A program made the position numbers and the translations under genes. A DNA stretch of 64,000 bases, from the sequence record OL960581; one strand, given 5' to 3'. The notes below the pieces were generated by a model, which was given only the letters and a program-made list of their open reading frames with translations, had not been told where the DNA came from and did not search any database. Below are positions 2,404-47,425 of the stretch, piece by piece (within the stretch, counting starts at the first letter, position 1; each line of letters opens with the position of its first letter). The stretch comes from Escherichia phage vB_EcoM_SA20RB.

Positions 2404-2679
2404 TTATTTCATATTATTGAAATATTCTTCTGCGATTTCGTCGTTATCATGGTAAACTTTAGAAGACAGTTTAACATAACTTTCAGCAGTGAACATGTTA
2501 ATCACAACCTTTACAGTATACCACTGACCATCTTCATTACCCATTACTGCGTAAGTTTCAAACATCGGATGGTCAGGACCGATAACTTTAATATCATTCA
2601 CTGTACGACCGAAATCTTCTGAAACGCATTTCATAAAGAAGTTGAACAGTTCGCCGTAATTATCCATTTCATTCTCCAA
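2404..2679 (-). CDS. hypothetical protein (91 aa)
   Basis: Six-frame ORF with GGAGAATG RBS; early promoter immediately upstream. Confidence 0.6.
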   Translation of the reverse strand: MENEMDNYGELFNFFMKCVSEDFGRTVNDIKVIGPDHPMFETYAVMGNEDGQWYTVKVVINMFTAESYVKLSSKVYHDNDEIAEEYFNNMK

Positions 2680-2710
2680 GTTATTTTCTGTATCAGTAGT
2701 TGATAGTTGT

Positions 2711-2745
2711 ATAGTACCATGGAAGAACGGGGATGTAAACAGTTT
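2711..2745 (-). promoter_or_regulatory. sigma70-type early promoter (-35 TTTACA 2739..2734, 17-bp spacer, -10 TACTAT 2716..2711)
   Basis: Minus strand reads ttttttcacaaaactgTTTACAtccccgttcttccatggTACTAT with A/T-rich upstream; member of a repeated promoter family in this window. Confidence 0.6.
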
Positions 2746-2874
2746 TGTGAAAAAATTTTTTAAAAAGTTTTAGGGAATTCTAGGACAGGGAGGGGAAATC
2801 AAAGGATAGGATAATATATTATAAAGGGTATAAACTAAATGATGCCTAGAGAGGCCCGGAAAGGCCTAGATACC

Positions 2875-2902
2875 AAAAAGCCCCAACCTTTTGGTCGGGG
2901 CT
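2875..2902 (-). terminator. rho-independent terminator (copy A of a duplicated hairpin)
   Basis: Minus RNA AGCCCCGACC-AAAA-GGUUGGGGCU followed by UUUU; 8 nt after stop of 2910..3383. Confidence 0.65.
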
Positions 2903-2909
2903 AAGAATG

Positions 2910-3383
2910 TTATTTGATTTGTTTAGCAGACCAAATGCGATCTTTAATAATTTTTTGGATGTCTTCAACATACTCTAGGTCATGAGCATGTGGATTATCT
3001 TTGAAACTATGAGCTCGCGCAAGTTTCTGGCCTTCGGTCTTAATTATCAAAAGTTCTTTAAGAATTGCTTCATACCTAGAGATAATTCCTTTAGCAATAT
3101 TTTTTTCTTGTGCTGCTTTAGGGTCAGCCTTAGGAGCAGGTTTACCTGAAGCCTTTGCAAAAGCAGCTCCAGTAGCAACTAAACTTTTCCAGGCCATACT
3201 AACTGCATTCCCTGTAAATCCTTCGGCTTTCATATCACGAGCAAATTGGAATCGTGATTCATCGGAAGCATCTTTATAGGAATATTTACCCGCGGCAATG
3301 GCTGCTTTTGCGACAGCTTGAATTTCGGTGCTAGATGCTTCATTTAACGCCGCTTCATTTAAAAATTGAGCATATGATTTCAT
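2910..3383 (-). CDS. candidate internal (head-packaged) protein, 157 aa
   Basis: N-terminus MKSYAQFLNE/AALNE/A resembles the capsid-targeting leader MKTFKEFTS...ITE/A of the ipI-like ORF, with L-x-E sites as used by prohead protease; own late promoter; flanked by hairpin terminators. Confidence 0.6.
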   Translation of the reverse strand: MKSYAQFLNEAALNEASSTEIQAVAKAAIAAGKYSYKDASDESRFQFARDMKAEGFTGNAVSMAWKSLVATGAAFAKASGKPAPKADPKAAQEKNIAKGIISRYEAILKELLIIKTEGQKLARAHSFKDNPHAHDLEYVEDIQKIIKDRIWSAKQIK

Positions 3384-3419
3384 CTTATTTCCTGTTTTAA
3401 TTCGTGGTTTTAATATACT

Positions 3420-3427
3420 TATTTATA
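3420..3427 (-). promoter_or_regulatory. late promoter TATAAATA (minus strand)
   Basis: Plus tatttata = minus TATAAATA, 36 nt upstream of ATG 3383, directly after the terminator. Confidence 0.6.
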
Positions 3428-3429
3428 CT

Positions 3430-3457
3430 AAAAAGCCCCAACCTTTCGGTCGGGGCT
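3430..3457 (-). terminator. rho-independent terminator (copy B), GAAA tetraloop, ends tRNA/stable-RNA operon
   Basis: Minus RNA AGCCCCGACC-GAAA-GGUUGGGGCU + UUUUU; near-identical to copy A (one loop base differs). Confidence 0.65.
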
Positions 3458-3505
3458 AAGCCTTGCGGCAACCTTGTCGGGGTTCCACCTGCTAAGGCAA
3501 GTGTT

Positions 3506-3600
3506 TGTACGAAACGCCGGGATTCGAACCCGGTTATTAAGCAGTTGACGCTACTCAATATTTTTAAAAGGCCATATCTCGACCATATCCGAACGTTCCG
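3506..3600 (-). ncRNA. tRNA-like stable RNA (rnaC/rnaD-type)
   Basis: Minus strand has 7-bp acceptor-like stem (CGGAACG/CGUUUCG), canonical T-arm CCGGGUUCGAAUCCCGG and discriminator, but an oversized body; no standard anticodon arm. Confidence 0.45.
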
Positions 3601-3771
3601 TCAAAAACGCTACTCGGCTTACGGCAAAGATATTTCCTCGAATCGATAATTCGGTGCGCCGTTTCTGCTGTGATGTAAGAGGGCATCAATAAACGCAAAG
3701 ATTATTAACGCAATTCCTTACTCAGGGAACATCAGTCCGACGACTTACCGGTAGCGACCCGGTTTCTCATT
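3601..3771 (-). ncRNA. putative stable RNA between tRNA-Arg and the tRNA-like element
   Basis: 170 nt non-coding, inside tRNA operon, no ORF with RBS; position corresponds to T4 stable RNA species C/D. Confidence 0.35.
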
Positions 3772-3848
3772 TGGTCGAGGCAGAAGGATTCTAACCTTCA
3801 ACCAACGGATTAGAAATCCGTTGCTCTATACAATTGAGCTATGCCCCG
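3772..3848 (-). tRNA. tRNA-Arg (anticodon UCU), CCA encoded
   Basis: Hand-folded: acceptor CGGGGCA/UGCCUCG, D-arm GCUC..GAGC, anticodon loop UUUCUAA, T-arm GAAGG-UUAGAAU-CCUUC, 3' ACCA. Confidence 0.8.
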
Positions 3849-6449: not shown

Positions 6450-6479
6450 TTTATTTTCCTAATTAATTTTGATGAGATA

Positions 6480-6514
6480 ATAGTATCACTACCTCATCAA
6501 CGTGTAAACAACTT
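6480..6514 (-). promoter_or_regulatory. sigma70-type early promoter for ipI (-35 TTTACA 6508..6503, -10 TACTAT 6485..6480)
   Basis: Minus: aatttcacaaagTTGTTTACAcgttgatgaggtagtgaTACTAT; same extended motif as other copies. Confidence 0.65.
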
Positions 6515-6521
6515 TGTGAAA

Positions 6522-7218
<697 letters not shown>

Positions 7219-9906: not shown

Positions 9907-9929
9907 TATAAATAGATAATATATTTATA
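9907..9929. promoter_or_regulatory. divergent late promoters: TATAAATA 9907..9914 (+, gene 53) and TATAAATA 9929..9922 (-, gene 4)
   Basis: Both 8-mers in the 47-bp gap between divergent late genes. Confidence 0.7.
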
Positions 9930-35019: not shown

Positions 35020-35444
35020 TGCTTCTGATCCCTGAAACTCATGAATTAGTTCTCGAGAATGTCGAAGCACTTATTCCTGAAGCACAGGGTCGCTTTGACG
35101 AATTGTCTTCTGCTTTAAATAAAGACGATATAAATACAATTATCGAGAATATGCTTGATGATGAAACTGATTTAGCAGTTGCATTAGCTTCTATTAATGA
35201 AAATATGCCGTTAAATGAATTCATTGTTAAGCATGTTTCAGCTCGTGGTGAAATTACACGTACTAAAGACCGCAAAACGCGCGAACGTAATGCATTTCAA
35301 ACCACTGGGCTGTCTAAAGCAAAACGTAGACAAATTGCTCGCAAAGCTACCAAAACGAAGATTGCCAATCCAGCAGGTCAATCTCGTGCTCAGCGTAAGC
35401 GTAAAAAAGCTCTTAAACGCCGTAAAGCATTAGGATTAAGCTAA
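35019..35444 (+). CDS. 68: prohead core protein gp68
   Basis: 141 aa; ATGA-type overlaps on both sides. Confidence 0.8.
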
Positions 35445-36082
35445 TGAATGAACCCCAATTACTAATTGAAACTTGGGGTCAACCTGGCGAAATTATTGAT
35501 GGTGTGCCAATGCTTGAATCCCACGATGGAAAAGACTTAGGTTTAAAACCGGGTTTATACATCGAAGGAATATTCATGCAAGCAGAAGTCGTCAATAGAA
35601 ATAAACGTCTTTATCCAAAACGCATATTAGAAAAAGCGGTAAAAGACTATATTAATGAGCAAGTTTTAACTAAACAAGCTCTCGGAGAATTAAATCATCC
35701 TCCACGCGCTAATGTTGACCCGATGCAAGCCGCTATCATTATAGAAGATATGTGGTGGAAAGGAAATGACGTATACGGACGAGCTCGTGTTATTGAAGGT
35801 GACCACGGTCCTGGAGATAAATTAGCAGCTAATATTCGTGCCGGATGGATTCCAGGAGTTTCTTCTCGTGGATTAGGTTCATTGACTGACACAAATAAAG
35901 GTTATCGTATCGTAAACGAAGGATTCAAATTAACTGTAGGTGTTGATGCAGTATGGGGTCCAAGTGCTCCAGATGCATGGGTAACTCCTAAGGAAATTAC
36001 CGAATCACAGACGGCGGAAGCCGATACAAGTGCCGATGACGCCTATATGGCTCTCGCAGAGGCCATGAAAAAAGCGTTATAA
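35444..36082 (+). CDS. 21: prohead core protease gp21
   Basis: 212 aa. Confidence 0.85.
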   Translation: MNEPQLLIETWGQPGEIIDGVPMLESHDGKDLGLKPGLYIEGIFMQAEVVNRNKRLYPKRILEKAVKDYINEQVLTKQALGELNHPPRANVDPMQAAIIIEDMWWKGNDVYGRARVIEGDHGPGDKLAANIRAGWIPGVSSRGLGSLTDTNKGYRIVNEGFKLTVGVDAVWGPSAPDAWVTPKEITESQTAEADTSADDAYMALAEAMKKAL

Positions 36083-36112: not shown

Positions 36113-36922
36113 ATGCTTAAAGAACAACTGATTGCTGAAGCGCAAAAAATTGATGCTTCCGTTGCTCTTGATAGTATTTTCGAATCAGTTAATATTTCTC
36201 CGGAAGCAAAAGAAACTTTCGGCACTGTATTCGAAGCTACCGTCAAGCAGCACGCCGTTAAATTAGCTGAATCTCATATCGCTAAAATTGCTGAAAAAGC
36301 AGAAGAAGAAGTAGAAAAAAATAAAGAAGAAGCCGAAGAAAAAGCTGAGAAGAAAATCGCTGAGCAAGCTTCTAAATTCATCGACCATCTTGCGAAAGAA
36401 TGGCTCGCTGAAAATAAATTAGCAGTTGATAAAGGCATCAAAGCCGAACTGTTTGAATCCATGCTTGGTGGATTAAAAGAGCTCTTTGTTGAACACAACG
36501 TTGTTGTTCCAGAAGAATCAGTTGATGTTGTAGCTGAAATGGAAGAAGAGCTGCAAGAACATAAAGAAGAATCAGCTCGTCTGTTCGAAGAACTTAATAA
36601 GCGTGACGCATATATCAATTATGTGCAGCGTGAAGTGGCATTGAGCGAAAGTACTAAAGATCTGACTGAGTCTCAAAAAGAAAAAGTCTCTGCTCTGGTC
36701 GAAGGTATGGATTATTCAGATGAATTCTCAAGTAAATTGAGTGCCATCGTAGAAATGGTGAAGAAGTCTAATAAAGATGAAAGCACTATTACTGAGGGTA
36801 TAAATACTCCTGATACTGAAGCAGCCGGACTGAATTTCGTCACTGAAGCTGTAGAAGATAAAGCTGCACCTGGTGCAGAAGATATTGTAAGTGTATATGC
36901 GAAAGTCGCATCTCGTTTCTAA
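36113..36922 (+). CDS. 22: prohead core scaffold protein gp22
   Basis: 269 aa, acidic helical protein. Confidence 0.85.
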   Translation: MLKEQLIAEAQKIDASVALDSIFESVNISPEAKETFGTVFEATVKQHAVKLAESHIAKIAEKAEEEVEKNKEEAEEKAEKKIAEQASKFIDHLAKEWLAENKLAVDKGIKAELFESMLGGLKELFVEHNVVVPEESVDVVAEMEEELQEHKEESARLFEELNKRDAYINYVQREVALSESTKDLTESQKEKVSALVEGMDYSDEFSSKLSAIVEMVKKSNKDESTITEGINTPDTEAAGLNFVTEAVEDKAAPGAEDIVSVYAKVASRF

Positions 36923-47413: not shown

Positions 47414-47425
47414 TATTTATAAATA
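47414..47425. promoter_or_regulatory. overlapping divergent late promoters (gene 26 minus, gene 51 plus)
   Basis: atatTTATAAATAg: TATAAATA on plus at 47418..47425 and on minus at 47421..47414. Confidence 0.65.

Follow-up and report, generated by a model that had tools for sequence, protein, structure and literature searches.

A terminator-insulated late cassette at the e.8/rnaC junction of T4-like phages probably encodes a packaged internal protein

What does a 157-amino acid (aa) open reading frame (ORF), boxed between two nearly identical hairpins, do for a T4-like phage, and what kind of protein does it encode? The question is raised by Escherichia phage vB_EcoM_SA20RB (sequence record OL960581), of which a single stretch of 64,000 nucleotides (nt) was analyzed and is called the window here. 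The window is a segment of a Tequatrovirus (T4-like) genome, and the ORF lies on its minus strand at the junction of the e.8 and rnaC homologues. An original prediction, made from the letters of the sequence, took the ORF and its flanks for a late cassette encoding a candidate packaged internal protein. The analysis described here leads in the same direction: the unit is probably a self-contained late cassette for an unannotated internal protein (Ip) of a T4-like phage, one that would be packaged in the phage head.

The ORF region, of roughly 530 nt, is bracketed by two direct copies of a 36-nt repeat with 94% identity (Table 1). Each copy, read on the minus strand, folds into a 10-bp stem with seven G-C pairs and a tetraloop, followed by a T-run. 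RNA folding gives -20.3 kcal/mol (z = -3.9) for the upstream hairpin and -19.5 kcal/mol (z = -4.3) for the downstream hairpin, and the two are the top two terminator-like sites in the first 8 kb. The 30-nt core of the repeat occurs exactly twice in the 64 kb, as opposed to no occurrence in 100 shuffles. The proposed pair of near-identical terminators is therefore well founded. The late promoter attributed to the ORF also stands. The position of the motif is kept in 14 of 15 homologous loci from three genera, as TATAAATA in 10 of them and as AATAAATA in 4. The same number of homologous loci (14 of 15) have a common layout in which a terminator hairpin is followed by a late motif about 35-45 nt before the ATG, the ORF, and a terminator.

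Not every genome has a downstream terminator that copies the upstream one; the exceptions are three of the related sequences compared (L013, L014, and L016; L numbers are our handles for these) and Klebsiella phage KpV477. Because the two terminators differ in some loci, insulation by terminators is the general rule and the direct-repeat form is a particular case that eases deletion. A genome-specific variant shared by both hairpin copies in PinkRuby and Shf125875 had suggested concerted evolution of the copies, an idea that was dropped because BYEP02 and L009 mix variants. One part of the original prediction needs revision. It placed the self-contained late unit inside an early operon; the late unit flanked by terminators holds, but it sits between two transcription units, tRNA-rnaD-rnaC and e.8, because the e.8 unit has its own early-type promoter (Table 1).

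The link to the Ips comes from the N terminus of the 157-aa protein, MKSYAQFLNE/AALNE/A (slashes mark predicted cleavage sites), given in the original prediction as MKSYAQFLNEAALNEA. Mutagenesis of the IPIII leader, MKTYQEFIAE, has indicated that targeting works mainly via residues 4 and 7 and processing via residues 8 and 10 (PMC9026906). All four of these experimentally critical positions of the capsid targeting sequence (CTS) are found in the 157-aa leader as Y4, F7, L8, and E10. The prohead protease gp21 cuts after the Glu of L/I-X-E, and the sequence alone indicates two sites of this type, L8-N9-E10/A11 and L13-N14-E15/A16, so that the protease motif proposed earlier occurs twice, each time as LNE/A. 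The second site arises from a 15-nt tandem duplication (3337-3347 / 3352-3362), and the duplicated segment shows indel polymorphism among homologues. The unprocessed N terminus of the protein is SYAQFLNEAALNEASSTEIQAVAK and its unprocessed N-terminal peptide is SYTQFLNEAVLNEASSTEIQAVAK, while the sequence from A11 is AVLNEASSTEIQAVAK and that from A16 is ASSTEIQAVAK.

The curated Ip leaders are MKTYQEFIAE, MKTYQEFITE, MKTFKEFIAE, and MKTFKEFTS...ITE. The original prediction drew its comparison with the ipI-type leader. The match turns out to be better than that, as the 157-aa leader is nearer to that of IPII/IPIII (MKTYQEFIAE) than to that of IPI; compared with the IPII/IPIII leader, MKSYAQFLNE has 5 identical and 3 conservative residues among 10 positions. 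Such starts are rare by chance. Of the window's 567 ATG frames with 40 aa or more, only the 157-aa ORF and ipI start with a loose CTS pattern, compared with 0.024 expected. A strict pattern that includes positions 8 and 10 is found in the 157-aa ORF alone, compared with about 3e-5 expected in the window. By every sequence criterion, the leader reads as a CTS.

The protein belongs to a family that is confined to T4-like phages, where a word-indexed search returned 14 clusters and an exhaustive profile search returned 13. It is encoded in 511 phage records, and many T4-like phages of Escherichia, Shigella, and Yersinia match the 901 bp around the ORF at 95-98% identity. All full-length homologues retain the leader and its cleavage motif, and neither a drop to 26-40% identity nor a changed C-terminal domain removes them. 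Their starts include MKTYNEFLNE, MKSYAEFLTE, MKFKEFLAE/A, MLKFNEFLAE/G, MINFSDFLNE/G, MKSFSSFLNE/G, and MISFNEFV..LITE/S. M1 and F7 are among only nine invariant columns of the family, and these alignments show the strongest conservation in the leader, with the rest of the family's sequence diverged to 26-30% identity. In the KpV477 homologue (L008, about 2497-3030), an in-frame TAA follows after about 78 codons and the gene is annotated as a 78-aa coding sequence. Klebsiella phage KP01 has an intact version of 177 aa, which makes a pseudogene or an error of sequencing the probable explanation in KpV477. The name RB32ORF133c appears in no paper.

In some relatives, the site holds a second cassette. 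It is found directly downstream of the 157-aa cassette in PinkRuby (L004, 1672-2392) and in three IMG/VR contigs (L010, L011, and L015), and it consists of AATAAATA, a 187-aa ORF, and a terminator of its own that is different (CCCTATC-TAAAT-GATAGGG plus T5, -10.5 kcal/mol). The 187-aa protein starts with MKTYAEFLTE/AAKLPSE/A and is present in 165 phage records, all with hypothetical annotations (e.g., RB14ncORF136c). BLASTP finds similarity between the 157-aa and 187-aa proteins in the 12-residue leader only. Two proteins in the same slot with dissimilar mature parts and a common targeting leader are the signature of Ip loci. A kinship of the two proteins might be read from their common assignment to phrog_2280, which scores the 157-aa, 187-aa, and Klebsiella-type 177-aa proteins all at E < 1e-50. 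This was set aside given the BLASTP result, and the mature parts are treated as unrelated. BLASTP also shows no significant similarity between the 187-aa and 177-aa proteins, and phrog_2280 appears to be heterogeneous, with the leader and a helical composition as its main common ground.

The cassette is present in some genomes and absent from others, in line with the original idea of a swappable unit. In T4, e.8 and rnaC have no gene between them. In the alignment, T4 has one hairpin where the window has hairpin, promoter, ORF, and hairpin, with both flanks colinear, and PST and T2 have the same empty site with a single hairpin. A record of the T4 tRNA region (X03016) annotates the single-copy hairpin as a potential terminator. 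When the hairpin was counted by its exact pattern in the fetched loci, occupied genomes had two copies and empty genomes had one, in exact step with the presence or absence of the 555-bp unit; a 42-nt megablast query undercounts second copies given its 28-mer word requirement. When the T4 empty-site sequence was matched at full length, a spread sample of 27 sites divided into 7 empty ones, spanning about 261 bp, and 20 occupied ones, spanning about 815 bp. About 690 records share the locus, as compared with the 511 that encode the protein, so that about 70% keep the gene. The hairpin is confined to the e.8/rnaC locus, at one or two places per genome.

By synteny, the slot of the gene is the same in Tequatrovirus, Mosigvirus, and Jiaodavirus, and the gene's divergence follows the genus. 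Because the slot is the same in three genera, the distribution suggests an old resident gene that was most likely lost by T4, T2, and PST through repeat-mediated deletion rather than a recent insertion, a direction that we infer. Integration of a circle would yield the same structure as a resident gene combined with deletion.

The ratio of nonsynonymous to synonymous substitution rates (dN/dS) is 0.04-0.18 at dS up to 1.7, and the ORF is for this reason a real gene under constraint. The predicted mature form has 142-147 aa, 15.5-16.0 kDa, and an isoelectric point (pI) of 9.4-9.6, and is thus basic like IPI-III. An AlphaFold2 model (pLDDT 75.7) depicts a disordered leader (residues 1-15), as expected of a propeptide; a confidently modeled three-helix N-terminal domain (18-71); a disordered, lysine-rich Lys/Pro/Ala linker (76-87, KPAPKADPKAAQEK); and a C-terminal domain (88-154) that is a helical hairpin. 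The two domains differ in tempo. The N-terminal domain has dN of 0.18-0.27 across genera and changes about 20 times faster than the C-terminal domain, which at larger distances is swapped outright in members from Klebsiella and Yersinia phages. In the comparison with L012, dS is 1.30 in the N-terminal domain and 0.10 in the C-terminal domain. This sharp difference between the halves implies a recombination breakpoint within the ORF, near the linker.

A published virion proteome bears on packaging. The protein g140 of phage fD1 has 95% identity to the product of the 157-aa ORF and was listed as particle-associated at the strict threshold of liquid chromatography-tandem mass spectrometry (LC-MS/MS) in purified virions, and its neighbors g138 and g139 (e.8) are absent from the particle-associated list (PMC8309999 Table S3). 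The detection of g140 proves expression and is compatible with packaging, though not decisive. The fPS-2 paper holds no virion proteomics. Phage fD1 lacks ipII and ipIII between denV and e and has, across denV, a 157-aa IpIV-type protein with the leader MKTYQEFITE/AA (L003, 786-1259); its counterpart in PST is found at 427-900 (L006). The 157-aa length that these share with the cassette ORF is coincidental, and the sequences are unrelated.

Taken together, these attributes would fit the following course of events. The phage late apparatus would start a transcript at TATAAATA, and the downstream hairpin would end it. With the late motif as sole promoter and a strong terminator shielding the gene from upstream transcription, the protein would be made only at the time of prohead assembly. 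The first 10 residues would act as the CTS and bring the precursor into the gp22 scaffolding core of the prohead, where gp21 would remove the leader after E10 and/or E15 (L-N-E/A). Both gp21 and gp22, the trans-acting machinery needed by this packaging model, are encoded in the window. The basic mature protein of about 15.5-16 kDa (pI about 9.5) would then remain with the DNA in the head and enter the next host by ejection. Turnover of the unit, by deletion or reinsertion, may be due to homologous recombination between its two 36-nt repeats.

The closest parallel is with the T-even internal proteins (T4's IPI, IPII, and IPIII; Ip4-Ip12 of Repoila et al. 1994; and IpIV-VI of PST). Like the 157-aa leader, theirs have a CTS with Y/F4, F7, L/I8, and E10 and end in the gp21 motif L/I-X-E. 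Further points in common are that they are small, basic, nonessential, and polymorphic among close relatives, as with the 157-aa gene that is absent in T4, T2, and PST; that they are flanked by repeated regulatory motifs able to mediate shuffling; and that the mature parts of the members are mutually unrelated. More than 30 Ip variants have been reported (PMC2839356). The regulatory design is different. Upstream of ipI, II, III, V, and VI (T4, L002; PST, L006; fD1, L003; and the window at 6450-6560) is an early-type GTTTACA-N17-GATACTAT with a palindrome across the spacer, in agreement with the Ip-associated elements described by Arbiol et al. (PMC2839356), and none of these canonical genes has TATAAATA within 110 nt. 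The two sets of genes with a common leader therefore use opposite regulatory designs. The two helical domains predicted for the 157-aa protein also contrast with the alpha/beta fold of IPI*.

Other systems offer partial parallels. The PeSL cassettes (Arbiol et al. 2010, Comeau et al. 2014) likewise have an accessory ORF insulated by a repeated promoter and stem-loop, with a GGGG...CCCC stem, and lie in a hyperplastic region where presence and absence are explained by recombination between flanking copies. In the case described here, however, the promoter is the late TATAAATA rather than a sigma-70-like early promoter, the motif follows the upstream repeat copy only, and the repeat is the terminator itself, at one locus and with a copy number of just two per genome. 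The definition of PeSLs comes from RB49/phi1, and they have no sequence homology to the cassette, which is an analogue of PeSL and not a member. T4 Alt, too, is made late, resides inside the head, has a short propeptide at its N terminus that gp21 removes, and is injected to act on the host, properties that are predicted for the 157-aa protein; unlike it, Alt is a large packaged ADP-ribosyltransferase with about 40 copies per head and a recognizable catalytic domain. The ejection proteins of giant phages of the phiKZ/SPN3US type have propeptides with redundant x-x-E sites cut by a gp21-like prohead protease, a redundancy that is mirrored by the duplicated LNE/A. They differ in belonging to another phage lineage, in using an S/A-X-E motif, in being much larger, and in forming the inner body.

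Several observations weigh against a packaged internal protein. Packaging, cleavage, and injection are, to begin with, predictions from sequence features. The gene lies at the e.8/rnaC junction, outside the two recognized ip loci (next to 57B and between denV and e), and papers from 2010-2025, including PMC2839356 and PMC12373910, speak of two Ip loci; the location criterion is nevertheless historical rather than mechanistic. The ORF has only TATAAATA and GC-rich terminators in place of the early-type promoter and AT-rich palindrome of ip genes. The octamer by itself is weak evidence, with 24 in the window compared with 9.8 expected by chance, and because of this high chance rate, the late promoter call rests on the conserved position. 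Every deposited annotation examined is hypothetical or unknown, and PHROGs lists phrog_2280 as "unknown function," in contrast to the curated Ips, each of which has a PHROG labeled internal virion protein. Searches of Pfam, NCBIfam, and PDB sequences and Foldseek runs against PDB and BFVD gave no informative match and no likeness to a known anti-defense protein, and no enzymatic domain was detectable in them. The C-terminal domain is almost invariant (dN about 0.012 at dS 0.7-1.3), unlike a protein in a fast arms race. The "PPAP" label of the fD1 study is unspecific, as 113 of the 277 gene products bear it, DenV, NudE, and lysozyme among them (PMC8309999 Table S3). The most atypical homologue, in a Yersinia contig like fHe-Yen9-01 (L017, 1400-2040), has the degenerate start MLEYSEFLKE/LFCE/A and directly follows the preceding ORF; it has neither a hairpin nor a late-promoter motif within 100 nt. 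A homologue among the nonpackaged e.x proteins of T4 was also looked for, as the original prediction had named it as counterevidence, and T4 has none.

If the protein is packaged, its function is the next question. Ip1-3 of T4 each inhibit a distinct GmrSD type IV restriction enzyme (PMC12373910), and it is because of the analogy with Ip1-3 only that we tentatively suggest that the mature protein may neutralize a host defense at injection, a suggestion that could well prove wrong. The 157-aa protein has no sequence or fold similarity to the GmrSD inhibitors Ip1, Ip2, and Ip3 in Pfam, NCBIfam, PDB, or Foldseek searches of PDB and BFVD, and Foldseek against PDB and BFVD returned nothing beyond its own family. 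Its sequence is also absent from the supplementary data of the 2025 study that tested ip4-10, which covers only the classical ip1-10 (PMC12373910), and Ips receive no mention in the Durham-collection BrxU paper or in the Petrov 2010 review.

A packaged protein with a working CTS could serve the phage itself, as a DNA-condensing or charge-neutralizing component of the core or as an assembly accessory rather than an anti-defense effector. A basic protein with a Lys/Pro/Ala-rich linker of the kind that binds DNA phosphates would suit such a role, as would retention of the gene by about 70% of related genomes; a C-terminal domain that is near-invariant at dS of about 1 suggests a conserved partner within the phage, and loss of IPIII is known to slow head assembly (PMC9026906). 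However, T4, T2, and PST manage without the gene, all three of the three T4 Ips tested are specific GmrSD inhibitors (PMC12373910), and the fast N-terminal domain and the C-terminal swaps in Klebsiella and Yersinia phages fit diversification driven by a target. A phage-serving role is on these grounds somewhat unlikely, but the invariant C-terminal domain and the lysine-rich linker make it an alternative to take seriously. It is very unlikely that the product is instead a late cytoplasmic protein that never enters the head, with a vestigial or coincidental likeness to a CTS and a detection in fD1 that reflects carry-over contamination. Many clearly nonstructural proteins are found in the fD1 virion proteome, no annotation names the 157-aa protein as a head protein, and both the locus and the promoter type differ from those of the canonical ip genes. 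Against this, the targeting and cleavage residues are the best-conserved part of a family at 26-30% identity, an unrelated 187-aa protein in the same slot bears the same leader, the strict CTS motif has a chance of about 3e-5 per window, and the predicted late-only expression would fit the timing of prohead assembly.

The history of the unit can also be read differently. The 555 bp could be an actively mobile element, for example a PeSL-like mini-circle that integrates at a single hairpin, in which case the occupied sites would be gains. The structure is exactly that expected from an integrating circle with one hairpin copy; PeSL mini-circles have been documented in RB49/phi1 (PMC2839356), tandem arrays of one or two cassettes occur, and the intragenic recombination seen with L012 (dS of 1.30 in one domain and 0.10 in the other) points to exchange. 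Mobility of this sort is nonetheless unlikely given that the gene is found in the same syntenic slot in three genera with divergence by genus, that the hairpin is at one locus only, with one or two places per genome, and that the downstream terminators in L013, L014, L016, and KpV477 are not copies; the empty sites are explained equally well by repeat-mediated deletion. The reading preferred here thus remains that of a resident late cassette whose product is probably packaged.

From left to right in the neighborhood of the cassette, the minus strand carries the e.3-e.8 homologues, the 157-aa ORF, rnaC/rnaD, tRNA-Arg, and segB, followed beyond segB by seven tRNAs, trna.2-4, ipI, 57B, 57A, gene 1, and gene 3, with head genes 20, 21, 22, and 23 coming later. 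The rnaC and rnaD homologues form the end of the upstream tRNA/stable-RNA unit. An Rfam search around the cassette found tRNAs only; rnaC and rnaD have no Rfam match and were for this reason placed by alignment with T4. The tRNA-Arg beside segB (anticodon TCT, 3772-3848) has strongly diverged from that of T4 (L002, 6174-6248), with the adjoining rnaD nearly identical, and it looks as if an allele had been replaced next to the gene for the homing endonuclease SegB. A second small hairpin, AGGCC-CGGAAA-GGCCT inside CTAG...CTAG (2846-2869), is found in the interval from the downstream terminator to the e.8 promoter. In T4, C-to-T changes on both arms (AGGTC/GGCTT) leave G-U pairing for the plus-strand transcript alone; the minus strand, which the genes use, loses the pairing. 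Elsewhere in the window, TATAAATA is found on both strands, within 25 nt or overlapping, at 9907-9929 and 47414-47425, and these paired sites may be divergent late promoters.

Table 1. Coordinates in the window of the cassette and of the features that bear on it
Feature	Position	Strand	Basis or reading
157-aa ORF, ATG start	2910-3383	-	Precursor of predicted internal (capsid-packaged) protein
Leader, codons 1-15: CTS MKSYAQFLNE and second unit AALNE	3339-3383	-	Predicted gp21 cleavage after E10 and/or E15
Shine-Dalgarno AGGAA, 5 nt before ATG	3389-3393	-	Read from sequence; kept in relatives
T4-type late promoter motif, perfect TATAAATA	3420-3427	-	44 nt upstream of ATG, directly after upstream T-run
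Upstream copy of 36-nt repeat; hairpin 3434-3457 and T-run	3425-3460	-	Terminator of tRNA-rnaD-rnaC unit; left boundary of cassette
Downstream copy of 36-nt repeat; hairpin 2879-2902 and T-run	2870-2905	-	Would end cassette transcript; right boundary
Early-type promoter of e.8 unit (TTTACA-N17-TACTAT with TG)	2711-2739	-	Equivalent site is a predicted early promoter in fPS-2 annotation
e.8 homologue	2404-2679	-	
rnaC homologue	about 3508-3646	-	Alignment with annotated T4
rnaD homologue	about 3653-3770	-	Alignment with annotated T4
ipI, canonical internal-protein gene of the same genome	6162-6449	-	Pfam IPI_T4, 7e-54
Prohead protease gp21	35444-36082	+	Pfam Peptidase_S77, 1.5e-111
Scaffold gp22	36113-36922	+	Pfam T4_CASP, 3.8e-90

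A class of polymorphic, CTS-bearing internal proteins with repeated flanking motifs is already known and was reportedly described by Repoila 1994. What appears to be new is the Ip membership of a widespread hypothetical family and of its 187-aa neighbor, a third locus, and the late-only, terminator-boxed design, a division between known and new that is drawn without reference to the texts of Repoila 1994 and Comeau 2007. A bolder proposal, and one that is rather doubtful at this stage, is that the e.8/rnaC junction is a third, hitherto unrecognized Ip locus, where one or two CTS cassettes stand in an array that is late-only and insulated by terminators. The main occupant is then pictured as a modular two-domain injected effector, with one half that is fast or swappable and one that is near-invariant, directed against a defense outside the range of Ip1-3. 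If this is true, the third-locus effector could explain differences in host range between carriers and the noncarriers T4 and T2.

Among phage proteins, internal proteins are the first that the host encounters. If they are packaged, the 157-aa protein (about 500 genomes) and the 187-aa protein (165 genomes) would enlarge the injected arsenal of T4-like phages and become candidates for orphan defense systems, with T4 and T2 available as natural nulls for complementation. The late-only, terminator-boxed design would also mean that a cassette of the Ip type can do without the early-promoter/stem-loop elements that were described in 1994. The combination of the hairpin, TATAAATA, and the 15-residue leader may also offer a compact module for packaging foreign proteins.

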